Made by a program: the position numbers and the translations under genes. A stretch of DNA of 34,459 nt from a virus (Duplodnaviria; Caudoviricetes): the IMG/VR virus record IMGVR_UViG_3300032274_000029, positions 1-34,459 of that record. One strand, given 5' to 3'. Of the stretch, positions 8,825-34,183 are shown piece after piece. A model generated the notes under the pieces. The model saw only the letters and a list, made by a program, of their open reading frames with translations. It did no database searches and had not been told where the DNA came from. Each line of letters opens with the position of its first letter. Position 1 is the stretch's first letter.

Positions 8825-8855
8825 AAAAAGGAGTCTCTTTGAGGAGACTCCTTTT
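8825..8855 (-). terminator. terminator after major capsid gene; contains a variant of the 16-bp palindrome (GTCTCTTTGAGGAGAC, 8833-8848)
   Basis: AAAAGGAGTCTC/GAGACTCCTTTT stem with A/T tails. Confidence 0.75.
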
Positions 8856-10352: not shown

Positions 10353-11441
10353 TTATTTTCTTTTAATACTTCTAATTTTAAGTCCCTTACCACTATCTGT
10401 GTTTAGAGACTTAAACTGTGTTCCTCCTTTACTTGTTACTTCAGGTGTTCTACGTTCCGACATATTAATATTCTTTGTCTTACGCATCACATCTTCAGTA
10501 GCATTAGCTTTACCTTGCTCATAAAAGAACTTAGCAAACTTTTCAGGATTCTGTGCAATTGCTACACTCCTATGAAAACCTTTAGAATCTTTTAAAAGAC
10601 CACTATCATCTAAATACTTGGTTGCCCAACTACCTGGATTTAATGCACTCTTTTTTAAATCTTCTAAACTACCTGGAGAATACGTTATGGTTTCTTCACC
10701 TATATTGAACTCAAAACCTTTGAACTCAGGTGTAAATACTTCTAACGTTTTAGAGTCATAAAACTCTTTCTTTCTAGCAGTCTCTTCTTCATAAGACTTC
10801 GCATCTGCGATGTATTGCTTATAGCCTTCCATTTCTTTGTCAGAAACATTTGAAGCTTGCGTTCCCCTTGACTCAAGTGGTTGCTTATACTTCTCTTGCA
10901 TTCCTTTAAAGTAATCTTTTGCTTTAGCAATAGCTTTTTTCTTCTTTAACTTAATTTTCTTTATGTCACCCTCATCATCTAAATCTTCATCAAAAGAATA
11001 ATCATCCATTAAGGTTTCAATATCCTCTTCATCAAGACCATCTTCGGTAGCACGTAAATAATCTTTAAGTAAAGAATCAGGATTAGATTCATCAAAGTCT
11101 TTTTGTAACTCCACAAAATCTTTAATACCTCTACCTGTATCTTTTTTATATTTAAAGTAAGCAGCGACATCTTCAGGTAATTCTTCCTGAGTTTCTCGCT
11201 GACTCATTAACTCATCAAATGAATTAATTTCTTTATTATATCTTTTTCCAATATATGAAAGAACGTCTTTATCGTTTAATTCAGCTTTTGGCTCTTCAGC
11301 TTTTGGCTCTTCAGCTTTTGGCTCTTCAGCTTTAGGTTGGTCATCATTAGTCTTTTCTTCATGCTTATCTAAAAGCTCTTGTTCTACCTGTTGTACTGAT
11401 TTTTCTTCACCTACTGTTACTTCTTTTACTTTGAATTCCAT
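10353..11441 (-). CDS. capsid scaffolding protein
   Basis: highly charged (E/K/D), helical, EEPKA repeats, between portal and capsid. Confidence 0.7.
   Translation of the reverse strand: MEFKVKEVTVGEEKSVQQVEQELLDKHEEKTNDDQPKAEEPKAEEPKAEEPKAELNDKDVLSYIGKRYNKEINSFDELMSQRETQEELPEDVAAYFKYKKDTGRGIKDFVELQKDFDESNPDSLLKDYLRATEDGLDEEDIETLMDDYSFDEDLDDEGDIKKIKLKKKKAIAKAKDYFKGMQEKYKQPLESRGTQASNVSDKEMEGYKQYIADAKSYEEETARKKEFYDSKTLEVFTPEFKGFEFNIGEETITYSPGSLEDLKKSALNPGSWATKYLDDSGLLKDSKGFHRSVAIAQNPEKFAKFFYEQGKANATEDVMRKTKNINMSERRTPEVTSKGGTQFKSLNTDSGKGLKIRSIKRK
11280..11333. repeat. 15-bp tandem repeat TTCAGCTTTTGGCTC x3.6 (EPKAE linker)
   Basis: seen directly. Confidence 0.9.
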
Positions 11442-13932: not shown

Positions 13933-16098
13933 TTATCTTATTATTTCACTACGACTTCCTTTATTGTTGTACCTAGCAAAGTTAACAATAATATTTGATT
14001 GTTTTTTCACAGGTTGATAAAGGTGTCTTTGACAAGCCATTATTGCTAAACCTGAACTAATAGAGGCATCAAACTTTGTTCTATTGCTTATATCAAACTT
14101 TGCCCAGTCTTCTAGTGTTCTAGTAAAAGGCATATAACCCATTTCATCTGGACCTATTAATCCTACGTGAGATTCAATATGAGACTCAATAGCTGCTGCG
14201 TGAGCCTGCTTTACTGCCTCACTTGAGTTAGGTATACCCCCAAGTTCTTTCTCTGTCTTAGAGAGCTTGTGTTTGAGTTTGTCTGGTCGATTAATACTAA
14301 AGCCTCTGTAGCCTCTATTTTTAAAATGATACAGTAAACGAGGTTTATTGTTTTCTACTAATATAGGCATTCCATAGAACACACAAGCCATCAATACTTC
14401 CTCAAAAAATATTTCTGCAGTTTGAGGTCTAGCCACATACTCTAAAAAAAACTGATTACTAGGAGCATCATCCATGTTAAATTTTGTAATTCCATGCAAA
14501 GCACCATTTGAAGCTCCACCTCCAACTGTTCCAGATATGTCATAGCTATCACAACCAAAAGCACCAAGATGCTCGTTTGCAGGAAAAAAATCACCTCTAT
14601 GGTTTTTCTTATACCTATTCTGCATATTTTTTTTAGGTATCCAACTTACTAAAAATCTCCCCCTAGTGTTTGGAGTCCATATAACCTCAGTATCTTTGAT
14701 TCCATTCTTCCAAGAAAAAGACCCACGAGTTAAATGGTGTTCTTTTATAAGCGAGTCGTTGTAATCAATCTGCTGATATATTCGTGTGAGATTAAACAAT
14801 GACTGCTTGCTTTCATCCCTAAACGCATGAGATTCAGTACGAGGAAATTGTCTGTAAAACTCATTTAAAGCATCAGGATCATTTTTTAAACTTTCAACTT
14901 CGTTGTTCCAGTAATCAACAACATCCTCCATAGGCATGCCATACTCATCAATGTATCCTTCAAAGTTCCACTCCATTGGTATAAACAACGAATACAATCC
15001 ACTTTTTGTTTGACCATTATTACTTCTGTTATTAGGATTAGAATCGTAGTAAAGTTTTTTAAACTCTTCACCACCCTTGTTTAGTGCATTTGATGTTGAA
15101 CCCATCATGCACTTTCCAATAATTCTTCTACCCAATCTTAAACAAGTTTTAGTGACACGATAATTATTTAGTATATTGTTTGGCTTTAGCCATTTACCAC
15201 TTTCATCATGTGCTAATAAAAGCAACTTCTCACCATCATAAGAGTTGTCATCTGTATTTTTCCAGTCAATAGTGGTATCTAAGCCTTCCATCTCATCATC
15301 ATCGACATTATACATATTTTTTTTAGTAATCTTGGATGCAGGAATTCTAAACGCCAACTCTGTTTTAGGCTTATCCATACCATCCTGCACAGGTTTAAAA
15401 AAGAAGGGATAGTTTCTAACAATAGGAACAACCTTATCTGTAAACATTTTTTTTGCATCAGAACCTGACTTAGACAAAATACCTATACGAGAGTTTTTAG
15501 ATATTGTCCCAACATTTGCACACTCTTCGGAAGCCATAAATGAAAATCCAGAACGTCTAATTTTCAAGTATATCATTCCAAAACACCTAGGGTCTGCTTT
15601 ACATGCTTCCCAAAAAATGTAAAAAATTCTATTTGCTTCCCTGAAGTCAGGATACCCTACATCAATCTTTGTCCACTGAAGATACATGTAGTGTGACCCT
15701 GTAATGTATGTGTATGTTTTGTTGTTTACAAACCAGTGCCCTTGTTCTCTTTTATCAAACTCATCCTCAATGTAATCTATCCACTTAGCTTTAAATGTAT
15801 TTGGTTGCTGATTCCACTGGAATATAGACTGTATTTTTAGTAGTGCTTTAGGATAATTTTTTCTTTCCCACTTAGTTGTGTCTCTTTGAAGAGACTCAGG
15901 AGTTTTTGGTAAACCTATTCGTAGTCCATTAATATCATACACCTCGCCTACTTCGCCTGTTTTAGAAATAATAACTAAATCATACTTCTCATCATAACCA
16001 TATTGCCATGACTTGTTTCTGTTCTTTTTCTTTAATATTCCTTTTGGAATATAATTATCCAGAACTCTGTGTAGATTATGAAGACCTTCTTTCTGCAA
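13933..16098 (-). CDS. terL: terminase large subunit (TTG start; start uncertain)
   Basis: Walker A-like LKIRRSGFS, Walker B LLLAHDESGKW, motif C MGSTS, RNase H-like FGCDSYD and late D. Confidence 0.9.
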   Translation of the reverse strand: MQKEGLHNLHRVLDNYIPKGILKKKNRNKSWQYGYDEKYDLVIISKTGEVGEVYDINGLRIGLPKTPESLQRDTTKWERKNYPKALLKIQSIFQWNQQPNTFKAKWIDYIEDEFDKREQGHWFVNNKTYTYITGSHYMYLQWTKIDVGYPDFREANRIFYIFWEACKADPRCFGMIYLKIRRSGFSFMASEECANVGTISKNSRIGILSKSGSDAKKMFTDKVVPIVRNYPFFFKPVQDGMDKPKTELAFRIPASKITKKNMYNVDDDEMEGLDTTIDWKNTDDNSYDGEKLLLLAHDESGKWLKPNNILNNYRVTKTCLRLGRRIIGKCMMGSTSNALNKGGEEFKKLYYDSNPNNRSNNGQTKSGLYSLFIPMEWNFEGYIDEYGMPMEDVVDYWNNEVESLKNDPDALNEFYRQFPRTESHAFRDESKQSLFNLTRIYQQIDYNDSLIKEHHLTRGSFSWKNGIKDTEVIWTPNTRGRFLVSWIPKKNMQNRYKKNHRGDFFPANEHLGAFGCDSYDISGTVGGGASNGALHGITKFNMDDAPSNQFFLEYVARPQTAEIFFEEVLMACVFYGMPILVENNKPRLLYHFKNRGYRGFSINRPDKLKHKLSKTEKELGGIPNSSEAVKQAHAAAIESHIESHVGLIGPDEMGYMPFTRTLEDWAKFDISNRTKFDASISSGLAIMACQRHLYQPVKKQSNIIVNFARYNNKGSRSEIIR
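15880..15895. repeat. 16-bp palindrome GTCTCTTTGAAGAGAC inside terL
   Basis: identical to the copy at 28791. Confidence 0.85.
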
Positions 16099-17378: not shown

Positions 17379-18281
17379 TTAGTTCTTCTGCCTTACAGAA
17401 GGACCAGTAGCTCCTTGTGTTATTGTATATCCATTTACAAATTCATTATCATTACCATCATATTGATATTTTAACATTACTGGGTTTGATAAATCTCCAA
17501 ATATGTATGGCAACTCATGGTTTGTGTTTGTCCATGTAGGGTTTGGTATGCCTATAGCAAATTTCATTATAATTTGTGATGTTCTTAAGTCGAATGGATC
17601 ATCAGGAGTCACATTAGACCTAGGATGGTGTACCGTAAGCCTTGTACCCCAATAATTACCTGATGCCGTAGCAGGAAGTGAGGTCACTTCTGTATTTGTA
17701 CCATCAAACAAAAACGATAAAGGATTAAAAGGCACTTCAATATAAGTGGTAGGTCTCAGCGAAGCAAAGTCAGTTATCAATGATCCTGTCTTAGCAATCT
17801 TTAATTCACTATTTATATCCCACTCTGTTGTAATAGGAAATAAATTAAGATTAACCCCTGCATAAATAGCATCTTGTTGTGATGATGCCCAATTGCTTCC
17901 TGGAAAATTAGCTCTCTGATATAATCCATTGTCATGAGAAGGATGAATAAAATTAGCCCTTTTCATAACATACTCAAGAGAAGTAGGGTTCTTATAAGAT
18001 CTTGCCTTTTTATATCTAAACATAAAAAGCCTAGGATTTTTAGTTAACCACTCTGTTTCAACAGGTTTTTGCATATTTACAAAAGTACGTACACCAGGTT
18101 TTTTTAAAATATACATATATGGCGTAGGAATATCTAATGAGCCTGATGTGCCAATATATTCCTTTAATCCATCTACGGTAATGTTTTTAGTTACGTTTGT
18201 AGGCGTTCCATTTTCTTGACTAATAATAATCTTATCAGTCCCTTGTGGAGTTACGGTATTGTATGTGCTAATCTTTGGCAT
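17379..18281 (-). CDS. putative virion appendage protein
   Basis: 300 aa; N-terminal MPKISTY...TDKIII...TKNITV pattern common to tail appendage anchor domains. Confidence 0.5.
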   Translation of the reverse strand: MPKISTYNTVTPQGTDKIIISQENGTPTNVTKNITVDGLKEYIGTSGSLDIPTPYMYILKKPGVRTFVNMQKPVETEWLTKNPRLFMFRYKKARSYKNPTSLEYVMKRANFIHPSHDNGLYQRANFPGSNWASSQQDAIYAGVNLNLFPITTEWDINSELKIAKTGSLITDFASLRPTTYIEVPFNPLSFLFDGTNTEVTSLPATASGNYWGTRLTVHHPRSNVTPDDPFDLRTSQIIMKFAIGIPNPTWTNTNHELPYIFGDLSNPVMLKYQYDGNDNEFVNGYTITQGATGPSVRQKN

Positions 18282-20384: not shown

Positions 20385-21038
20385 TTAAGGTGTACAATTA
20401 GTAAAGTTAGGTTTTGGTAATATCCAAGATGGTGTGCTTGAGCTAAAAGAACTACAACTAACAACTTGAGTTACCACCCATCCACTTAGGTCTTGATTAT
20501 AAGTGGATGCTCCATTAAACATCTGAGCCATATTAGTAGCACTACTCACATCCCAATTTGATAAAGGTTGATTAAAAGCTAATGCATCATAAAACATATA
20601 TTGAAATTCTACCCCTTGTGCATTAAAAACCCAATTTGATAAAGGTTGATTGAATACATCAGCTTCATAAAACATAAAATTAAAATTACCACCAACAACA
20701 CTTAAGACATCCCAATTATTTAACGATTGATTGAAGGCTCTTGCTCTAGTAAACATCTGTCGCATGTTAGTAACACTACTTGTGTCCCAAGCACTAATAT
20801 CTCCATTGAAATTTATTTTATCTTCAAAAGCAGCAGTCATATTAGTTACCTGACTAACATCCCAATCCTGAATTTTACCATAGGGTACTAAGTCGTAATC
20901 TCCATTTGGGTCTTGAGCTAATATATCTGTAATCGCTTGATTAAATGTAGCGTCAGTTAGAGGCAGATTTCCTTCTCCTCCTGAACCAATTGCTGATAAT
21001 GTGGTTGATCCTATACTTGCTGCAATGGATATATACAT
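20385..21038 (-). CDS. BspA/DUF285-type repeat protein
   Basis: repeated FNQPLSNWDVS.VTNM..MF units of about 25 aa. Confidence 0.8.
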   Translation of the reverse strand: MYISIAASIGSTTLSAIGSGGEGNLPLTDATFNQAITDILAQDPNGDYDLVPYGKIQDWDVSQVTNMTAAFEDKINFNGDISAWDTSSVTNMRQMFTRARAFNQSLNNWDVLSVVGGNFNFMFYEADVFNQPLSNWVFNAQGVEFQYMFYDALAFNQPLSNWDVSSATNMAQMFNGASTYNQDLSGWVVTQVVSCSSFSSSTPSWILPKPNFTNCTP

Positions 21039-24720: not shown

Positions 24721-25155
24721 ATGAAATCAGACTACTTAAAATACTGGAGAGTAGTACGTCAGTTTATCAAAGTAAAACATAAACTAAGCCAGTCAGACTT
24801 AGACATACTATTATTCCTAAAGTCCGAAGAATACTTTTCAAAAGATAAGTTTAAAGAATTTGATGACCTAATAAGTTGGGAAAGAAATCGATTTGAAAGA
24901 CTAAGACAGGAAGGATGGATTGAGGTGTTTAGAAAAAGAATGGGAAAGAGAAAGGCTCTATATCAGCTCTCTCAAAAAGCAAAAAGGGTTACCACATCAA
25001 TATACAAATATCTCAATGGGAAAGAAATTCCTACAAGTAATGATGGCAACCCTATGTTCCTTAGAAACGTGTCATACACCGACAAGGTGTATCGAAATTT
25101 TATAATTAAGATGAACGCATTTATAAAACAACAACGACATCAGACTCAGAAATAA
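24721..25155 (+). CDS. winged-helix (MarR-like) DNA-binding protein
   Basis: LSQSDLDILLFL...FERLRQEGWIEV...LYQLSQKAK pattern. Confidence 0.6.
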   Translation: MKSDYLKYWRVVRQFIKVKHKLSQSDLDILLFLKSEEYFSKDKFKEFDDLISWERNRFERLRQEGWIEVFRKRMGKRKALYQLSQKAKRVTTSIYKYLNGKEIPTSNDGNPMFLRNVSYTDKVYRNFIIKMNAFIKQQRHQTQK

Positions 25156-27503: not shown

Positions 27504-27812
27504 GGTTGGTCCTTTTAAATTATACGTATATCCCAAAGGTACAAAATTTTGTTAGATACATGTAGTGGTTGGGTTCTCATAGCACACACGACACACCCCT
27601 GCGATCCGAAAGTGATTTTTTTTTGCTCGACATTTTGAGATTTTTTTTCATGTTTCTGATTTTTTTAGCTTTTTTCTATAAGCACATCAGCAGGTAAGAT
27701 GCAGGCATAATATCCTAGGTTTATCCTGCCATATTACATGATACATTGCAGGTAAATTGATGGCATCAATCACCTATCTCGTGCAGGATATCTGAGAAGA
27801 GAAACTGAACAT

Positions 27813-27828
27813 GTCTCTTCGAAGAGAC
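27813..27828. repeat. 16-bp perfect palindrome GTCTCTTCGAAGAGAC
   Basis: seen directly. Confidence 0.9.
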
Positions 27829-28028
27829 TAAGACAATACCTTGTCAAAGCTACAAAGCTATTGAGACATACAGAGATGTCTCTTAACCTATTGCTACCTG
27901 CTATCCTGCCTAAACAATTTGCAGTAATCTAATCCTGCACCATCCATCTTTAGATATCACGAATCAAAGCGAAAAACAAAAGACAAAATTTATACTAGAA
28001 AAGACTAGGATTTAGACAAGATTTAGAC

Positions 28029-28036
28029 TATATTCG
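28029..28036 (+). promoter_or_regulatory. putative early promoter -7 box (TATATTCG) preceded by phased AGAC repeats
   Basis: one mismatch to TAnnTTTG; upstream of first + strand gene. Confidence 0.45.
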
Positions 28037-28093
28037 TATGGGGATATTCCCACATTAAATGAGTTAACATAAATAACTGAAAATCAACAAATT

Positions 28094-28363
28094 ATGAGAG
28101 ATTTAAACAACAAATCAAGTCAAAGGCATCTGATTACTGCCATCACTAAGAAGCATCAATCGATGGTAAACAGAGCATGTCAATGGCTAATCAAGTACAA
28201 TGAATCGAATGACCAAAGAGATTTAGCTGACAACAATGGGGATGAAAAGATGTACAGAAAGTACGATAGATTATGTGAAAAAGCATGGGACAAGTACGAG
28301 GATTACACATCCGAATTACCATCTAGAGAAGTAGCACAAATCGAGAAATCAGAATTATATTAA
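28094..28363 (+). CDS. hypothetical early protein
   Basis: 89-aa ORF with A-rich leader. Confidence 0.75.
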   Translation: MRDLNNKSSQRHLITAITKKHQSMVNRACQWLIKYNESNDQRDLADNNGDEKMYRKYDRLCEKAWDKYEDYTSELPSREVAQIEKSELY

Positions 28364-28383: not shown

Positions 28384-28791
28384 ATGAGAACAAGAAATGG
28401 AAGTAGAGCAACAAAAGGATTTAAGAACAGAGAGATGAATGATGATACCTACAAGCTAAGAAGAGCAGTAATGACAATCATTTATGAATTCAAGCACAGA
28501 TACGATATACCAAGACAAACAATCAGAATCGTAGATAGAGTACATGGGGAAGAAACACATGATGGATGGCATAGAGTTATTGGGTATGCAGGTATGGGTC
28601 AAAACTATGTACATATCCGAGGAGATTGGGCAGGAAAGAGTAGAGCAAAATTACTGCCATTAGTAGCACATGAGATATGCCATTCGGTTAAGGCAATCAA
28701 TCACGATGATGACTGCAAGTTGATGTCACCAACAATTGTAGATATGACTGAAGATGAAGTATGGAAAGCATGTGACAAGTATCTAAGCTAG
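28384..28791 (+). CDS. zinc metallopeptidase-like protein
   Basis: AHEICHSVKAINH...CKLM (HExxH + third His + Met-turn-like). Confidence 0.65.
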   Translation: MRTRNGSRATKGFKNREMNDDTYKLRRAVMTIIYEFKHRYDIPRQTIRIVDRVHGEETHDGWHRVIGYAGMGQNYVHIRGDWAGKSRAKLLPLVAHEICHSVKAINHDDDCKLMSPTIVDMTEDEVWKACDKYLS

Positions 28792-28857
28792 TCTCTTTGA
28801 AGAGACAAACTGCAGGTGTCATGGATGACCTTGAGCAAAGCGAAATTGCTACCTGCA
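28791..28857 (+). ncRNA. 16-bp palindrome followed by a three-way-junction RNA motif
   Basis: GTCTCTTTGAAGAGAC, then TGCAGGT/ACCTGCA enclosing GTCA/TGAC and AGCAA/TTGCT hairpins. Confidence 0.55.
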
Positions 28858-28889: not shown

Positions 28890-29525
28890 ATGAGAGAACA
28901 TTTATTACAGATTGAGAATGATTTCCTAGCATCATCAGAGGTTAGGAGTCACATGAACATCGCAAGGATTGATGCCTTGGCGATGGACATCAAAGACAAG
29001 CGAAAAAGTCAATTTGACCAATCGCTGAAGTTTGCAAAGCTAGTCAAAGCTAGTTACGATTGGTTTAAGTCTGAGGATGGTCAAACCACGTTTAACGACA
29101 ATGGATTGACATGGACAAATGAAGATTTTTACACCAAAGCAATTTGCATCAGCAAAGCACATTTCTACAGAGTTATCAAGGTAGCTAAGATTTGCGAAGA
29201 GAATCCACAGATTGTGACCAAGTACAAGCGAGAATGCACTGCTGAAGAGAATGCAGGTAATCCGACTGAGCGTAGTGTAGCTGAGTTAATCAAGAGAGCA
29301 AATGGCACAAGTACTAGCCAAGATGAGAACGAATCATCTACCGAAACATTGGTAACATTTTCGATGAAGAAAACCATGTTTGAAGATGGTAGAGGATTAT
29401 CGATAAGAATCTTATCTGATGGAGAGATTAAGACAAGTGGTGATGCACATGGAAAGATATCAGATGCGATGATGGAGCAGTTAAAAGCTATCTCAGTAGC
29501 GATTATTAATTCTAACAATAATTAG
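28890..29525 (+). CDS. hypothetical protein, possible HTH DNA-binding
   Basis: 211 aa; FYTKAICISKAHFYRVIKVA resembles an HTH recognition helix. Confidence 0.6.
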   Translation: MREHLLQIENDFLASSEVRSHMNIARIDALAMDIKDKRKSQFDQSLKFAKLVKASYDWFKSEDGQTTFNDNGLTWTNEDFYTKAICISKAHFYRVIKVAKICEENPQIVTKYKRECTAEENAGNPTERSVAELIKRANGTSTSQDENESSTETLVTFSMKKTMFEDGRGLSIRILSDGEIKTSGDAHGKISDAMMEQLKAISVAIINSNNN

Positions 29526-29527
29526 TT

Positions 29528-30493
29528 ATGATACATACACCAAAAGACGAAATCAAGTACGAAAAGACTAACGATTCATCGAGGGCATCATTATGTGGAT
29601 ATCATCATTCACCATCACCAAGAGAAATGCATAAGGGTGCAAAGTCTCATGATGTGCAGGGATTGAAGAAGAGAGATTTAGATAACCTGCTAACGATAGA
29701 TGGCGATTACACATCTAAGTTCACCATTGGAATTGAGATTGAGAAGAGCAGATTCTATCGCAGGGTTTACGAGGAGTTGAATTTAATCAAAGGATATGAG
29801 GAAGATGGGTCATGTGGATATGAAGCAATCACCAATATCCTGCCATTATTACCTGCATCGATTTGGAGACAAAAAGTCTTTAATATGGTTCATGAGGCAA
29901 AGTACATTATCGAGGATAGATATTCACCATCTAATAGTGATTGTGGTGGTCATATTACCATTGCATGTAATGGGATGGATTCAACTGAATTGCATCAACG
30001 ATTAAGAAAGCATGCAGGTATATTGTATGCGATGTTTCAGAGACGATTGAAGAATAGTTATTGCAGGCATAATATGAGAATGCTAAAGACTGAAGTAACA
30101 GGTAACAGGTGGAGACCTGCAAGAGAATTAGCAGGTGTTGATTACCAAGGTGATTTCCATCACAAGTATCAAGTTTGTCTTGACAAAGGCAATGGATTGG
30201 TAGAGTTTAGATTGCCATCTAGATTCACATCTGTAAAGCAAACCATGAGACGATATGAGTTGATGTATATCTTAATGGATGTGGCAGTAAATAAGCCTCG
30301 TACAAGCCATGAATCATTGATGAAAAGGGTTAAGCCTATCTTGATGTCGATGTACGAGAGAAACGAGGAGAAAGTAGCTTATGTGATGTCTCAAGCGAAA
30401 CATTACAGAGACTTTATTTTGAATGGCAGAATCCATCATGATATCTCTGAGTTTACTAGAAGTTATCAATACACCATCAGCAGAAATCGGTAA
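29528..30493 (+). CDS. putative amidoligase (COOH-NH2 ligase, glutamine-synthetase-like fold)
   Basis: FTIGIEIE, EDGS..YE, CGGHITI, KY, VEFR motifs in order. Confidence 0.8.
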   Translation: MIHTPKDEIKYEKTNDSSRASLCGYHHSPSPREMHKGAKSHDVQGLKKRDLDNLLTIDGDYTSKFTIGIEIEKSRFYRRVYEELNLIKGYEEDGSCGYEAITNILPLLPASIWRQKVFNMVHEAKYIIEDRYSPSNSDCGGHITIACNGMDSTELHQRLRKHAGILYAMFQRRLKNSYCRHNMRMLKTEVTGNRWRPARELAGVDYQGDFHHKYQVCLDKGNGLVEFRLPSRFTSVKQTMRRYELMYILMDVAVNKPRTSHESLMKRVKPILMSMYERNEEKVAYVMSQAKHYRDFILNGRIHHDISEFTRSYQYTISRNR

Positions 30494-30500
30494 TGGTAAA

Positions 30501-30534
30501 ATGTGGGGTGTCTCTTCGAAGAGACATCCTGCAT
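30501..30534 (+). repeat. extended hairpin containing the 16-bp palindrome (30510-30525)
   Basis: 15-bp stem with three G-U pairs, UCGA loop. Confidence 0.8.
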
Positions 30535-30584
30535 CTGTATCGAGATGTGCATCTCGGCTGACGATTCCAAAAGGATGAAACAGA
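30534..30584 (+). ncRNA. type III hammerhead ribozyme (predicted cleavage after GUA, 30539)
   Basis: UCUG-UA, stem I UCGAGAU/AUCUCGG, CUGACGA, stem II UCC/GGA, GAAA, CAGA. Confidence 0.8.
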
Positions 30585-30602
30585 AATCATTAAAATTAAA
30601 TT

Positions 30603-30911
30603 ATGAGAGAACAAATCAAATGCAACAACAGTGAATGCAATGGTATTCACAAGGTATCTTCAGTTAGAAATTGGGATGATACCATGGGTACATATGTAGA
30701 AAGATGTACAGAGTGCGAAATCAAGTACACTAGAGCATGGGGTCAAGAGGAGCATACTGAGTTTATGCGATGGATGATGAGTGACAACGTCATCAGAGTA
30801 AAGTCAGAGGGAAAACCTTATTGGTCAAGTCAAGATGCCATGTACAGAAACAAATTTTACACCATGTTAGATGCATGGAATTATTACAAAAAAGAATTTT
30901 TAATTTACTAA
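30603..30911 (+). CDS. hypothetical protein with CxxxxC...CxxC Zn-finger-like N-terminus
   Basis: 102 aa; CNNSEC...CTEC. Confidence 0.7.
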   Translation: MREQIKCNNSECNGIHKVSSVRNWDDTMGTYVERCTECEIKYTRAWGQEEHTEFMRWMMSDNVIRVKSEGKPYWSSQDAMYRNKFYTMLDAWNYYKKEFLIY

Positions 30912-30922
30912 TATTTATAGTT

Positions 30923-31114
30923 ATGAGAACATTTACAGAGTACGCAATTTTATTTTACACGTTAGCCATAGCATTGTTATTATGCGAGATGGCATGGAAC
31001 GGAATCGAGACCTATCACAATGGGCATTTATCATTTGTTGCAGTAGCAATGATTGGGGATGTAATCCTGCTAGCATTATTGAAGTTTACTAATCCTAAAA
31101 ACAAGAAGTCATGA
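30923..31114 (+). CDS. small 2-TM membrane protein (start 30923)
   Basis: two hydrophobic segments, basic C-terminus. Confidence 0.65.
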   Translation: MRTFTEYAILFYTLAIALLLCEMAWNGIETYHNGHLSFVAVAMIGDVILLALLKFTNPKNKKS

Positions 31115-31278
31115 ACAAAATACTAAATCACATTGTATTGCCAAGTGGATTGCATGCTTTACATATAGAGCAGGAAAACACAACGTCTATCAGGATAGAA
31201 ATCCTAACGGAAGAAGAGTACCAACATTTTACATGGTGGGAAAAAATATTAATGAAATTTAATCTAAGACAATCATGA
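31111..31278 (+). CDS. hypothetical protein (55 aa)
   Basis: manual translation; ATGA overlaps on both sides. Confidence 0.6.
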   Translation: MNKILNHIVLPSGLHALHIEQENTTSIRIEILTEEEYQHFTWWEKILMKFNLRQS

Positions 31279-31454
31279 GAAAAATAAGAGAATCATCTAC
31301 CAAATCGGTTGCACAAAGTTGGTTAGACCATTTTAGAAATGTAGCTAGAACAAACAGATATGCAAAAGGAAACGAGTACAAGATGACAGAAGAGACTAGG
31401 GTCAATACTCTAGGATTCAAAATAACATATTACATTATTAACCAAATCAAATAA
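31275..31454 (+). CDS. hypothetical protein (59 aa)
   Basis: manual translation MRKIRESSTK... Confidence 0.6.
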   Translation: MRKIRESSTKSVAQSWLDHFRNVARTNRYAKGNEYKMTEETRVNTLGFKITYYIINQIK

Positions 31455-31456
31455 CA

Positions 31457-31771
31457 ATGAGAATTACTAAAAAACAAAAACAGATTTACAAGGCACATCT
31501 TGATGCCTTTATGAACGACAATTTTGATGTCAAACATTTCGCTAAAAAGGATGACATTGAAATGGATTCAATCATCAGATTACACGAACTATTATCCAAA
31601 GGTAAAACCTGCAAGTCATTGTGGGAATACTTATGGGAAGCAAACGTTAGCATAGAGAGTCAATTGATGGCATCTAACGAGGTTTTAAGGCATGTAAGCA
31701 ACAAAGCTAAGAAAGATTCAAGAGATGCTTTTAGAGACTTTTTAAATAAACCAATGTTAAATATAAGATAA
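31457..31771 (+). CDS. hypothetical protein
   Basis: 104-aa ORF in tightly packed operon. Confidence 0.7.
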   Translation: MRITKKQKQIYKAHLDAFMNDNFDVKHFAKKDDIEMDSIIRLHELLSKGKTCKSLWEYLWEANVSIESQLMASNEVLRHVSNKAKKDSRDAFRDFLNKPMLNIR

Positions 31772-31773
31772 TC

Positions 31774-32082
31774 ATGGAACAGACAATTATTAAGTACGCA
31801 AGAAAGTGTGACATCACTAGCGAAGGCATGAACGAAGGTTACTGCATACTAGATGGAATGATGTATATAAAAAACGATTTTGATATGTTACAACATATTA
31901 CAGATGAAACCGATTACAATGATATTGAAGAGGCATATGAGGATGACTACTACTACTACACCGATTGGTTTGATACGATTGAGGAAGAAGATGAGTGGTA
32001 CACAGAGGATGGAAGTCTGATGAAAGATATGGGTGAAACTTGCAGGAATGGTAAGGAATGGGAAAAATGCGATTGTTGTTAA
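31774..32082 (+). CDS. acidic hypothetical protein
   Basis: very D/E/Y-rich, ends CDCC. Confidence 0.7.
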   Translation: MEQTIIKYARKCDITSEGMNEGYCILDGMMYIKNDFDMLQHITDETDYNDIEEAYEDDYYYYTDWFDTIEEEDEWYTEDGSLMKDMGETCRNGKEWEKCDCC

Positions 32083-32084
32083 TT

Positions 32085-32288
32085 ATGAAAGCGACAATTA
32101 AATTCAGAACAGACAGAGCAACTGATTGGTATGTTACCAGGGAGTTTGCTGACGAGAAACATTTAGACAATTACATTGGATACATATGTAGGACAAAGCA
32201 AGGCTACCTATGTGACGAAGTCTTTTACGATAGTGTAAAGGATGCAGAAGAACGTCATTGGGATACAGAGACCGTAAATCAAGATTAG
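32085..32288 (+). CDS. hypothetical protein (start 32085)
   Basis: AATTATG start context; precedes terminator. Confidence 0.65.
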   Translation: MKATIKFRTDRATDWYVTREFADEKHLDNYIGYICRTKQGYLCDEVFYDSVKDAEERHWDTETVNQD

Positions 32289-32302
32289 GGTTACACCTAA
32301 CT

Positions 32303-32341
32303 AAAAAAAAGCCTATGCGATAATTTGCATAGGCTTTTTTT
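32303..32341. terminator. bidirectional Rho-independent terminator
   Basis: A8-GCCTATGC...GCATAGGC-T7. Confidence 0.85.
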
Positions 32342-32396
32342 ATTGCCCATTATGGGCTAAAAATTCCCATTTGGGGAATGATGTCATATCTTCTTA

Positions 32397-32549
32397 CTAA
32401 GAAAGGATTGAGTACAATTGCAGGTAGTTTAGTCTACTGCAAAAATTAGGCTTGGCAGTATGCCATCTCTTGCCATGTAAATCCATAGCATGTTGCTTTA
32501 CGTTTATCTTCTGTTGCACAGATAGATTTGACCATTTAAAATTTTCCAT
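32397..32549 (-). CDS. small counter-oriented protein (50 aa, MENFKWSNLSVQQK...)
   Basis: manual translation; own -7 box TACATTTG (32566-32573); ends before bidirectional terminator. Confidence 0.55.
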   Translation of the reverse strand: MENFKWSNLSVQQKINVKQHAMDLHGKRWHTAKPNFCSRLNYLQLYSILS

Positions 32550-32574
32550 AATATTTTGTTTGATACAAATGTAA

Positions 32575-32621
32575 AATGCATTAGTGCATATTTAATGCAC
32601 AGATTAATGCATTAGTGCATA
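32575..32621. repeat. direct repeat AATGCATTAGTGCATA x2 (31-bp spacing), five TGCA cores
   Basis: seen directly. Confidence 0.8.
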
Positions 32622-32702
32622 AAAAGATCAGTTTAGGGAATTGTTAGGGAGTCCCTAAGCCAATGATAGCAAGGAATAGTTGCCTATGTCTAATTTTTGT
32701 CT

Positions 32703-32710
32703 TATATTTG
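32703..32710 (+). promoter_or_regulatory. -7 promoter box (TATATTTG)
   Basis: upstream of GATase-GGCT gene; embedded in phased GTCT repeats. Confidence 0.6.
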
Positions 32711-32731
32711 TCTAATATTAATCAGAAGTCT

Positions 32732-32747
32732 GTCTCTTCAAAGAGAC
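32732..32747. repeat. 16-bp palindrome GTCTCTTCAAAGAGAC
   Basis: seen directly, between promoter and ATG 32769. Confidence 0.9.
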
Positions 32748-32768
32748 TCTTCGCAAATCAGAATGCAC

Positions 32769-33836
32769 ATGTGTGTAATTATTATCAAACAGAAAGGCGA
32801 GGTAATGCCTAGAGAAATTGCCAAAACATCTAGTAAGATTAATCCTCATGGATTAGGAATTGTATGGCTCGATACATTCGAGGTAACTTATCACAAATCA
32901 AGCGAGTATCAGTTACTACTCACCAACAGACCTTTTATTGCTCACTTTAGATATGCTACCATTGGTGTTGTGTCTAAGGCTAATACGCATCCATTCAGAT
33001 GTGGCAACAACGTAGATGAGTTGCTCATGCAGAATGGTACAGTAAAAGGTTACGGCTCAAGTAAAATGACTGACTCAGAAGACTTAGCAATTAGGTTGGG
33101 AGATGTTCCTCGTGAACAATGGAAACAATCATTAGAGAAATTTGACTCAAGGTTTGTTACCATCAACACAAGAACAAGAACATTTCAAATGTACAACAGA
33201 GACCTATGGGTAAAACGTGGTGACATTTGGTATTCTAAACCAAACGTGTTGCAGGACAATCTTGTGGCTACGTATGGCACACTTAAAAAAGGCGAGAGCA
33301 ATCATCACTATGTACGAACTGCAAAGTACGTAGGAAGAGGTAAAACAGTTCAGAGGTATCCATTGGTCATCAATGGATTGCCATTCCTTTATAAAGAGGC
33401 AGGTGTTGGTTATCAAGTAGAGGTTGATGTATTCAAGGTTAGTGATTCAAGGTTAGAAAGAATGGATGCTTTAGAAAGTCACCCAAGATGGTACAAGCGA
33501 GAGCAGGTACTAATCGAGGTTGATGGTAAAGAGTTGACTTGTTGGGTATACTTTATGACTGATGCTAGAAACAAGCGTGAAGACCTGCATAAAAGTTTCA
33601 GCAGAAAACACAAGTCTAAATTCAGAACTCAATACACATTCGATAGCTTGTATAACATAGCTGATGAAGTTGATGAGGTTGAGCAGGCATCACTGTTTGA
33701 TTCAGTGTCGATAGAAGACGAAACTCCGTACTGTACGAATTGCTTTCACGACTTAGAGTATGATGGTTTCTCTCATTACCATTGTAACGGATGTGACTCG
33801 TGGTTCACAGAGACAGAGGCACAGTCTTCTATCTAA
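32769..33836 (+). CDS. class II glutamine amidotransferase fused to gamma-glutamylcyclotransferase and a C-terminal Zn ribbon
   Basis: M-C N-terminus, NPHGLG, HFRYAT, NTHPF, (Q)NG; YGTLKKG..NH...MDALE..P.WYKR; CTNC...CNGC. Confidence 0.85.
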   Translation: MCVIIIKQKGEVMPREIAKTSSKINPHGLGIVWLDTFEVTYHKSSEYQLLLTNRPFIAHFRYATIGVVSKANTHPFRCGNNVDELLMQNGTVKGYGSSKMTDSEDLAIRLGDVPREQWKQSLEKFDSRFVTINTRTRTFQMYNRDLWVKRGDIWYSKPNVLQDNLVATYGTLKKGESNHHYVRTAKYVGRGKTVQRYPLVINGLPFLYKEAGVGYQVEVDVFKVSDSRLERMDALESHPRWYKREQVLIEVDGKELTCWVYFMTDARNKREDLHKSFSRKHKSKFRTQYTFDSLYNIADEVDEVEQASLFDSVSIEDETPYCTNCFHDLEYDGFSHYHCNGCDSWFTETEAQSSI

Positions 33837-33842
33837 TCATTT

Positions 33843-33866
33843 GGGAGTCTCTTCAAAGAGACTCCT
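33843..33866 (+). repeat. hairpin containing 16-bp palindrome GTCTCTTCAAAGAGAC (33847-33862)
   Basis: GGGAGTCTCT/AGAGACTCCT. Confidence 0.85.
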
Positions 33867-33867
33867 T

Positions 33868-33918
33868 TCTGTTTACAGATGAGTGTCTGTACTGATGATT
33901 CTGAAAAGATGAAACAGA
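33868..33918 (+). ncRNA. type III hammerhead ribozyme (predicted cleavage after GUU, 33873)
   Basis: UCUG-UU, stem I UACAGAU/GUCUGUA, CUGAUGA, stem II UCU/AGA, GAAA, CAGA. Confidence 0.8.
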
Positions 33919-33943
33919 TTGGTTAAATTAAATTTTTTAAATT

Positions 33944-34183
33944 ATGAGTTTTACTCACACAAAAATTGAAGAGGCAAAATCCCTGCTAAAAGAGGCAGGT
34001 TATTTTACCGACAATCTTTGGCATGTAGATGATGTCCAAAGACAAGTTAAGCACATCAATGATGATGATGCTCAAGAAGTATTAGACATGGCTCTAACGA
34101 ATGAATTCGTCATGGAGTCTGTACACCAAGCAATCACATTTGCAATCAGGGAGATGAATCTTAAACTAGAGTACAATGAGTAA
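33944..34183 (+). CDS. hypothetical protein
   Basis: 79 aa, LWHVDDV motif. Confidence 0.7.
   Translation: MSFTHTKIEEAKSLLKEAGYFTDNLWHVDDVQRQVKHINDDDAQEVLDMALTNEFVMESVHQAITFAIREMNLKLEYNE

Follow-up and report, generated by a model that had tools for sequence, protein, structure and literature searches.

Type III hammerhead ribozymes behind palindrome-tipped hairpins between early genes of a Flavobacteriia-type phage: a likely self-processing arrangement

The DNA analyzed here, referred to as the window, is the 34,459-nt stretch of the Caudoviricetes record IMGVR_UViG_3300032274_000029, from a marine phage. Two of the spaces between its early genes hold RNA cassettes of the same build (Table 1). 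Each runs from a stop codon through a hairpin into a type III hammerhead ribozyme, followed by an A/U-rich leader and an ATG 18–25 nt further on. This architecture was described in an original prediction and is present at both places. A sigma-70 promoter scan remained at chance level (29 vs 29.4).

Table 1. Positions of the cassettes, palindromes and neighboring features in the window.
Feature	Position	Strand	Description
Palindrome, one mismatch	8833..8848	-	Hairpin tip and U-tract behind the gene of a 485-aa virion structural protein
Palindrome	15880..15895	.	Inside the terminase large subunit (terL) ORF
Palindrome	27813..27828	.	Non-coding region before the early genes
Palindrome	28791..28806	.	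At the stop codon of the gene preceding e3
Three-way junction	28811..28857	+	7-bp outer stem, small hairpin, 5-bp stem, 7-nt loop AGCGAAA; tRNA-like geometry; hammerhead-type slot
e3	28890..29525	+	211-aa early protein; helix-turn-helix-like residues 75–97; predicted homodimer; candidate palindrome binder
Early ORF	29528..30493	+	321 aa; upstream of cassette 1; no family match
Stop codon before cassette 1	30491-30493		
Hairpin 1	30501..30534	+	15 pairs including G.U; palindrome core 30510-30525 is the tip
Type III hammerhead 1	30534..30584	+	GUA triplet; predicted cut 30539/30540; U10.1-U11.1 variant
Hammerhead 1, stem III	30534-30538 with 30580-30584		
Hammerhead 1, stem I	30540-30545 with 30552-30557		Loop UGUGCA
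Hammerhead 1, core and stem II			CUGACGA; U.U plus 3 bp, loop AAAA; GAAA
Leader and ATG	30585..30605	+	A/U-rich leader (18 nt); ATG (30603) of a 102-aa ORF
Palindrome without hammerhead	32732..32747	.	Leader of the GGCT gene
GGCT ORF	32763..33836	+	GATase-II-like and gamma-glutamyl cyclotransferase (GGCT); upstream of cassette 2
Stop codon before cassette 2	33834-33836		
Hairpin 2	33843..33866	+	10 pairs; palindrome core 33847-33862; U-rich stretch behind; terminator-like in the consensus scan
Type III hammerhead 2	33868..33918	+	GUU triplet; predicted cut 33873/33874; U10.1-U11.1 variant
Hammerhead 2, core and loops			Loop I UGAGUG; CUGAUGA; stem II U.U plus 3 bp, loop GAAA
Leader and ATG	33919..33946	+	A/U-rich leader (25 nt); ATG (33944) of a 79-aa ORF

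A descriptor search of the window returned exactly two hammerheads, copies 1 and 2; 200 dinucleotide-preserving shuffles of the window gave a mean of 0.02 and a maximum of one. Both copies have three covariation-supported stems, I and II closed by loops and III open, and a complete core (C3 U4 G5 A6 N7 G8 A9, G12 A13 A14, A15.1-U16.1 and H17). At positions 10.1-11.1 both carry a U-U mismatch instead of the usual G-C, which is found in 5 of 30 aligned homologs. U10.1-U11.1 is a natural, tolerated variant and appears in the text of PMC3088659, like the PaP3 ribozyme, among the active ones. The search with Rfam models that the original prediction had proposed gave a sub-threshold hit for one copy. 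For copy 2, RF00008 scores 31.9 bits (E 0.0037), short of the 48.5-bit gathering threshold; for copy 1 it returns nothing up to E = 1. The U.U pair and the short stem II are flagged as departures from the model. As judged from sequence, the hammerheads at both sites are genuine type III ribozymes in intergenic slots, with nothing unusual about them within a phage family that is known and very common. The GUU triplet of copy 2 is a rarer type (5 of the 103 hammerheads in the clade), and with this triplet and the U.U pair copy 2 may cleave slowly. A third match to CTGAYGA...GAAAC, at 32017, fails the stem test.

The two hammerheads are only 75% identical, with the covariation in stems I and II that the original prediction had pointed out. 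Its expectation that the core would be conserved in relatives was also borne out. The 30 aligned homologs keep the core, and 94% of cells pair, compared with 36–47% in slid controls. Changes on both sides were seen in 11 of 15 pairs (6/6 in stem I, 3/4 in stem II and 2/5 in stem III). The stems covary and the core is kept, and therefore structure and catalysis appear to be selected rather than sequence identity. In the contact between loops I and II of hammerheads, loop I begins with U and loop II ends in a purine; U-G-N-G in loop I and AAA at the end of loop II are invariant in the alignment. A model built from the 30 sequences gave 71.5 bits for the hammerhead of Pseudomonas phage Clew-1, which is outside its training set. 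Clew-1 has a long hairpin upstream and a stem II identical to that of copy 1. Another cultured phage with a matching ribozyme is Flavobacterium phage elemoF, at the start of the early cluster. Pattern matches in three further loci (L002-L004) were due to chance, and no hammerhead is present there. Among the relatives, G001 is the closest that carries e3; hammerhead 1 is conserved in it and hammerhead 2 is absent. The hammerhead is dispensable, because two complete relatives (G006 and G011) are without one.

The position of the hairpin is coupled to the cut site far above chance. In 94 of the 103 clade hammerheads the predicted cut comes right after the end of a stable hairpin, as against 22 of 103 shifted controls, these being counts over related sequences and not independent events; the pairing of hairpin and ribozyme that the original prediction suggested looking for in related phages is found. 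In a set of 74 sequences chosen by the 3′ half of the ribozyme, the upstream hairpin was present in 43, compared with 3 of 74 shifted controls. At hammerhead sites, extension of the hairpin arms is confined to the transcribed strand (60/70 vs 13/70). The hairpin is kept despite loss of the palindrome in the second copy of L150, in L197 and in L205. An ATG follows within 45 nt of the hammerhead in 85 of 103, at a median distance of 26 nt. The clade thus presents a very regular natural design of stop, hairpin, cut, leader and ATG. In literature listings that mostly cover papers outside subscription journals, no description of the hairpin–hammerhead coupling or of the palindrome was found.

The palindrome, GTCTCT-N4-AGAGAC, occurs at seven sites in the window, and only two of these (30510 and 33847) precede a hammerhead. 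It had been presented as a part of the cassette; it does tip both hairpins, but of the 363 copies in the clade with an assigned strand, 293 are not directly followed by a hammerhead, and 29 of the 103 hammerheads have no palindrome. By its distribution the palindrome is therefore not just a cassette part. Its half-site is fixed at 5–6 bp and its spacer spans 4–6 bp. At hammerhead sites the spacer always has the same orientation (50:0), and at other intergenic sites one orientation prevails (92:27), a pattern that points to copying or to selection on the RNA and speaks against an operator. Of the 293 copies, 140 lie inside ORFs, where both orientations are used (76 TCAA to 44 TTGA) and the arms are not extended. 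The terL site has been preserved via a compensatory non-synonymous change (SLQRD vs CLQRH) and has decayed in five close relatives. No repeated palindrome family was found in 50 of the 59.8 kb of elemoF or in the whole record of Maribacter phage Panino.

The palindrome probably also serves as a DNA operator, a docking site of an e3 dimer, because it tracks e3 and e3 is a predicted dimer. Of the 62 loci that carry e3 and have 4 kb or more of downstream sequence, 61 have a palindrome family, and G001 has nine copies. In the nearest relatives by GroEL (94–95%), e3 is found in none of five and palindromes number only 0–2. The half-site also tracks the putative recognition helix (SKAHFY with GTCTC, QKS with GTGTCY, SKAQ and SKSR with GTGTCG), with helix and site changing together only about three times on a quick GroEL tree. 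Exceptions are L198, which has e3 and no clear palindrome family, L197 and MW202828, which have e3 and lack the terL site, and L173, in which e3 was not found (it is 54% complete) and the terL site is retained. L206 carries e3, and its "noE3" label on the tree is a filter artifact. The homodimer model of e3 scored 0.81, against 0.00 for the best control, with 94% contact agreement and pLDDT of 84 or more; 20 of 30 solved homodimers and 1 of 23 single chains attain the homodimer mark. Searches of e3 against Pfam, PHROG, Foldseek and PDB sequences gave no match. A structural match to residues 100–195 of Spo0J (1vz0) was weak (Z 5.4, rmsd 3.2, 88 aligned, rank 3), and DUF3102 occurs in 16% of the members of its Atlas neighbor cluster. 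A 144-aa "repressor" (24721-25155) was also considered as the binder and was rejected, relatives with 88–89% identical copies having no palindrome family nearby; its single-sequence model was poor (pLDDT 45).

ParB/Spo0J with parS, and KorB with OB, are systems in which a dimeric helix-turn-helix protein is combined with dispersed palindromes of about 16 bp, some of them inside genes. The candidate e3 system, with a predicted dimer that has a helix-turn-helix-like segment, would resemble them in these respects. Nevertheless, no Pfam ParB match was found among 26 e3 homologs, e3 shows no match to the ParB N-terminal domain, and the structural match is weak. Unlike parS and OB, the e3-associated sites are clustered in the early region and double as tips of RNA hairpins. 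If the palindrome is indeed an operator, one 16-mer would be read as both DNA and RNA.

Taken together, we consider it fairly likely that the hammerheads self-cleave the early polycistronic transcript of this phage, and that the 16-bp, lineage-specific palindrome at the hairpin tip probably serves another purpose as DNA, namely to bind the predicted e3 dimer. The fold and conservation of the ribozyme come from sequence comparison, and the coupling of hairpin to cut site from the statistics above. Cleavage at the two predicted positions is suggested by the intact core and by the tested relatives. An expression search returned only small shares, and in four sequencing runs made up of contigs, two of them labeled as RNA, no RNA contig was seen across either predicted cut; contigs do not show RNA ends, and this result weighs neither for nor against cleavage. 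The upstream message would then end in a stable hairpin plus 5–7 nt, and the downstream message would start with a 5′-OH, the ribozyme stems and a short leader. Hammerhead cleavage leaves a 2′,3′-cyclic phosphate and a 5′-OH. The hairpin would shield the new 3′ end from exonucleases, giving a terminator-like end without termination, and the stability or translation of neighboring genes would be uncoupled. Co-occurrence, covariation and the structure model suggest that an e3 operator was co-opted as the hairpin tip at gene boundaries. Present, absent and swapped states occur in close relatives, and the hypothesis of processing and stabilization is therefore directly testable.

A fairly unlikely alternative is that the hairpins are leaky intrinsic terminators or their remnants, with the hammerhead trimming read-through nearby and the unit attenuating downstream genes rather than stabilizing upstream ones. 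Hairpin 2, which has a U-rich stretch behind it and was called terminator-like, would suit this. So would the hairpin that follows the gene of the virion structural protein, here and in relatives, which is also tipped by the palindrome and runs into a long U-tract. Hairpin 1, however, has no U-tract, most hairpins before hammerheads run straight into the stem III strand, and the scan found four terminator-like sites where 3.0 were expected. We regard it as unlikely that cleavage switches the early genes off, the downstream piece with its 5′-OH being degraded fast by host RNases to leave a short pulse of protein. Such a role has a precedent in glmS, as covered in PMC6765202, and fits the early-region location, but stem I stands at the front of the downstream piece, and a leader and ATG are retained at a conserved distance.

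That the palindrome acts only as RNA, in the form of a short hairpin recognized by a protein of the phage or the host, with no DNA operator, is a doubtful reading though not a far-fetched one. It would account for the spacer orientation and the strand-specific arm extension. It sits poorly with the 140 unextended copies in ORFs, the compensatory change in terL, the fixed half-site and spacer, and the loss of the palindrome together with e3. A very improbable alternative is that early genes are shuffled by recombination, with the cassettes as its repeated handles and any RNA activity incidental. Gene content between cassettes does vary among relatives and slot content is swapped, but two hammerheads with such limited identity, covarying stems and a kept core are not what such handles would lead one to expect.

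The likely self-processing of the early transcript has a counterpart in the early RNase III sites of T7, at which cleavage between genes turns a long early transcript into messages ending in hairpins, the role proposed for the cassettes. T7 processing, however, requires the host enzyme and leaves 5′-phosphate and 3′-OH ends, whereas hammerheads leave the ends given above. Clustered hammerheads flanking phage and prophage genes, including the type III ribozyme of PaP3, were described by Perreault et al. 2011 (PMC3088659), who put forward the processing of phage polycistrons and demonstrated cleavage in three arrangements. Neither gene-flanking phage hammerheads nor the processing idea is thus new; both date from that paper. 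The hammerheads described there and those reported here are alike in being intergenic, in flanking single genes or short blocks, in the proposed role and in the U10.1-U11.1 variant. In contrast, no description of an upstream hairpin was found in that paper, the main text of which does not use the word "terminator", while the hairpin is near-universal in the present clade and is usually tipped by a genome-wide palindrome. Relatives of the present ribozymes may be among the 860 environmental entries in Dataset S1 of the paper. What self-cleaving ribozymes do biologically in bacteria and phages is described as largely elusive in PMC6765202.

About 10% of twister ribozymes have an auxiliary P0/L0 stem-loop, the role of which was stated as unclear (PMC11662667). 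Like the phage hairpin, it lies immediately 5′ of a self-cleaving ribozyme and varies in sequence; it differs in belonging to another ribozyme class and in its rarity, the phage hairpin being present in 94/103. By analogy the hairpin may damp cleavage rather than protect, because twisters with P0 show lower cleavage (0.40 vs 0.85; PMC11662667).

Other RNA folds occupy comparable slots. Relatives carry anticodon-less tRNA-like folds with canonical T-loops, as would be expected if the slot's job were to be cut. In G001 the slot of hammerhead 2 holds a different fold, the three-way junction. We give little credence to a broader proposal in which the early region is a two-layer module: the palindrome as DNA would be the operator of the e3 dimer, and as RNA it would tip a hairpin that caps the 3′ end after cleavage by one of several exchangeable elements (hammerhead, anticodon-less tRNA mimic or the 28811-28857 junction), the junction being a new class of small self-cleaving RNA. 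The junction had no meaningful Rfam match. In a pattern scan of 118 loci, its closing stem was found in six and the junction fold in three (L292, L315 and L336), which belong to lineages already in the comparison set.

Both cassettes of stop codon, hairpin, type III hammerhead, leader and ATG that the original prediction had placed between the early genes were recovered at their coordinates by re-inspection of the sequence and by a descriptor scan. The type III descriptor gave exactly two matches in the window, compared with a mean of 0.02 over 200 shuffles. The Rfam search proposed at the time was less favorable: copy 2 was matched, yet below the gathering score, and copy 1 was missed. The two copies share the U10.1-U11.1 (U.U) mismatch and a 3-bp stem II, and the triplet of copy 2 is GUU. 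In PMC3088659, U.U at the start of stem II is a natural variant (section 8) and the PaP3 ribozyme is listed among active variants; the text of Figure S6, though garbled, appears to show the same stem II. Moreover, the hammerhead of Pseudomonas phage Clew-1 has a stem II identical to that of copy 1. The expected conservation of the cores held for copy 1 but not for copy 2 in G001, the closest relative carrying the early protein e3. The evidence for the hairpin–hammerhead feature is thus good and the feature is real, while both the ribozyme family and the context it occurs in were known before.

Clustered phage hammerheads have been reported, with processing into operon- or gene-length mRNAs proposed and cleavage shown for three arrangements (PMC3088659). 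The role of self-cleaving ribozymes in bacteria is termed largely elusive in section 13 of PMC6765202; PMC13725137, on RNA viruses, contributed nothing further. Among the papers listed by literature searches, none was seen to describe the coupling of hairpin and hammerhead or the palindrome. The cassette is regarded as a new variant for three reasons: its hairpin is closely coupled to the ribozyme, its palindrome probably has two uses, and its slot can hold different occupants.

The pairing of hairpin and ribozyme was also to be sought in related phage genomes, and it was found there. Collection via e3 gave a clade of 79 loci; in 62 of them at least 4 kb of downstream sequence is present, and of these 56 contain a hammerhead and 61 a repeated palindrome. 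A strong hairpin ends 3–16 nt before the cut in 94 of 103 distinct clade hammerheads versus 22 of 103 in a shifted control. The palindrome is within 40 nt in 74 of the 103, and an ATG within 45 nt in 85. The hairpin often persists at sites without the palindrome. In a sister lineage the GTCTC palindrome is kept, but other structures precede its hammerheads, and the hammerhead is absent from some complete relatives.

When the 3′ half of the motif served as search pattern, 124 loci were returned, drawn from 23 of the 64 parts into which the viral collection is divided; the estimated number is about 340. The type III descriptor had 100 matches in 130 loci, and 74 cores were kept once duplicates, one weak match (L004) and rows whose flanks were too short had been removed; the search pattern for these cores excluded the hairpin itself. 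Counted over related sequences, not independent events, a hairpin of −10 kcal/mol or below ended 5–16 nt before the cut in 43 of the 74 (3 at a position 60 bases further upstream; shuffled mean, 1), and a 30-sequence alignment showed pairing in 94% of cells and covariation at 6/6 stem I pairs. The frequency of U.U in this alignment is inflated because the pattern scan, the source of 21 rows, fixes it. Hairpin sequences before hammerheads vary between lineages. In an unrelated phage group, whose leaders are of the Shine-Dalgarno type, these hairpins contain a palindrome particular to that group (core TTTAC-CA/TG/TA-GTAAA, both orientations), the same design as in the clade of the window with a different spelling. 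Before some hammerheads a recurring motif, CCTRAGYAAGAT...AAACTGCT, possibly a small pseudoknot, takes the place of the simple hairpin.

The palindrome (GTCTCT-N4-AGAGAC) is an element in its own right, beyond the hammerhead cassette. It has 7 copies in the window and 9 in G001. Spelled GTGTCT, it occupies 11, 7 and 10 sites in the relatives G002, G003 and G004, respectively, and spelled GTGTCG, it has 14 copies in the 40.8 kb of MW202828, where a search for a hammerhead found none. The 399 distinct clade contexts comprise 70 adjoining a hammerhead, 153 elsewhere between genes, 140 within predicted ORFs and 36 without strand assignment. At hammerhead sites the arms are extended on the transcribed strand (60/70 versus 13/70) and the spacer always has one orientation (50:0), which is taken as an RNA signature. 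Palindromes in ORFs lack the extension and occur in both orientations (76:44), hence a DNA signature. Of 19 relatives compared, 7 have the site within terL; its two arms change together, costing amino-acid changes, and it has decayed in five close relatives.

The palindrome is probably also the DNA operator of e3, although there are exceptions: L198 has e3 and no clear palindrome family, and L197 and MW202828 carry e3 but lack the terL site. The nearest relatives of the window by GroEL lack e3 and the neighboring early genes, and their palindrome copies are down to 0–2. One segment of the protein resembles a helix-turn-helix, and about three joint changes of its putative recognition helix and the palindrome half-site can be placed on the tree. 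The structure model of e3 is confident (pLDDT 83), with only a weak match to Spo0J, and the homodimer prediction scored 0.81 versus 0.00 for the best control; the mark set for this score is one that 20 of 30 solved homodimers reach, compared with 1 of 23 single chains.

In the nascent early RNA, the hairpin would most likely fold first and the hammerhead second, with a cut 5–7 nt 3′ of the hairpin. Although transcription had not terminated, the end gained by the upstream message would resemble one made by termination. The piece downstream of the cut would start with a 5′-OH and stem I, and retain an A/U-rich leader of 18–25 nt after the ribozyme. Hammerhead cleavage chemistry is established for the class, and 3′ hairpins generally protect RNA; for these messages, we infer the effect of cut and hairpin. 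The hairpin could instead be a leaky terminator, a reading that suits copy 2 only. Cleavage might also lead to switch-off by decay, with glmS as a precedent, or the hairpin might damp cleavage, by analogy with twister P0 as described in PMC11662667.

The slot has other occupants. The three-way junction of the window is made up of an outer stem of 7 bp, a small hairpin, and a stem of 5 bp that carries a 7-nt loop. A junction occurs at the equivalent place in G001, where a second, compensated version replaces hammerhead 2, and two further loci, L168 and L144, contain other versions. Junctions have the 7-nt loop AGCRAAA, compensated stems and intergenic slots before leader and ATG; an Rfam search of the junction gave no match. 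Across about 100 loci, a tRNA-geometry descriptor had 13 raw matches. Eight of these folds lack an anticodon and have a T-loop that is canonical or nearly so; they are situated before a leader and between early genes, four of them directly 3′ of a palindrome. The interchange of hammerheads, junctions and tRNA-like folds fits a slot that would serve for cleavage, either through the RNA's own activity or through the tRNA-processing enzymes of the host.

Positions of the features in the window and in the other viral loci compared
Feature	Locus	Position	Setting or remark
Hammerhead, copy 1	window	30534-30584	
Hammerhead, copy 2	window	33868-33918	
e3 gene	window	28890-29525 (+)	211 aa; no known family; predicted homodimer; candidate palindrome binder
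Three-way junction	window	28811-28857	3′ of stop codon and palindrome, 5′ of e3 leader
Three-way junction	L169	16024-16068	
Three-way junction	L168	17256-17300	
Three-way junction	L144	1480-1523 (minus strand)	
Anticodon-less tRNA-like fold	L204	14659	
Anticodon-less tRNA-like fold	L221	12317	
Anticodon-less tRNA-like fold	L238	6813	
Anticodon-less tRNA-like fold	L248	3318	
Anticodon-less tRNA-like fold	L249	6799	
Anticodon-less tRNA-like fold	L251	10634	
Anticodon-less tRNA-like fold	L252	2537	
Anticodon-less tRNA-like fold	L270	14206	
TTTAC-CA/TG/TA-GTAAA palindrome group	L023, L032, L038, L044, L046, L083, L090, L099, L100		upstream of hammerheads
CCTRAGYAAGAT...AAACTGCT motif	L064, L078, L115, L217, L268, L272, L280, L405-L407, L411		upstream of hammerheads
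Unannotated type III hammerhead, phage elemoF	L161 (NC_055853)	17863-17923 (minus strand)	head of early gene cluster
Non-coding stretch	window	27540-28090	
Coding repeat, 15-nt tandem unit	window	11280-11354	
Coding repeat, units of 75-81 nt	window	20493-20866	
Hairpin between A and U runs	window	32296-32343	end of first early block
TTG-20 nt-TATATTTG	window	32680-32710	21 nt upstream of palindrome at 32732

The window is the whole of a 34.5-kb virus record, with late genes (portal, terminase, virion proteins and GroEL) on the minus strand and short genes in a plus-strand block starting at 28094, which is called early in view of where it lies and of the annotation of comparable relatives. TerL shares 71% identity with its counterpart in MW202828, an uncultured phage from a spring, and 46% with those of Flavobacterium elemo phages. 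The host is likely a member of the Flavobacteriia, since the 87 matching records are mostly from Flavobacterium (68) and Cellulophaga (15) phages. The hammerhead found in elemoF belongs to a cultured Flavobacterium phage. Of the coding repeats, the 15-nt tandem unit lies in the gene after portal and the 75-81-nt units lie in a 217-aa gene. The long non-coding stretch separating the divergent late and early regions contains a palindrome copy, a second hairpin (GAGACAT/ATGTCTC) and many CTGCA/CCTGC words, and is possibly a genome end or origin. The hairpin between A and U runs resembles a bidirectional terminator and is the origin of weak Rfam leader matches. The TTG-20 nt-TATATTTG element, conserved in G001, resembles the Bacteroidetes housekeeping promoter.
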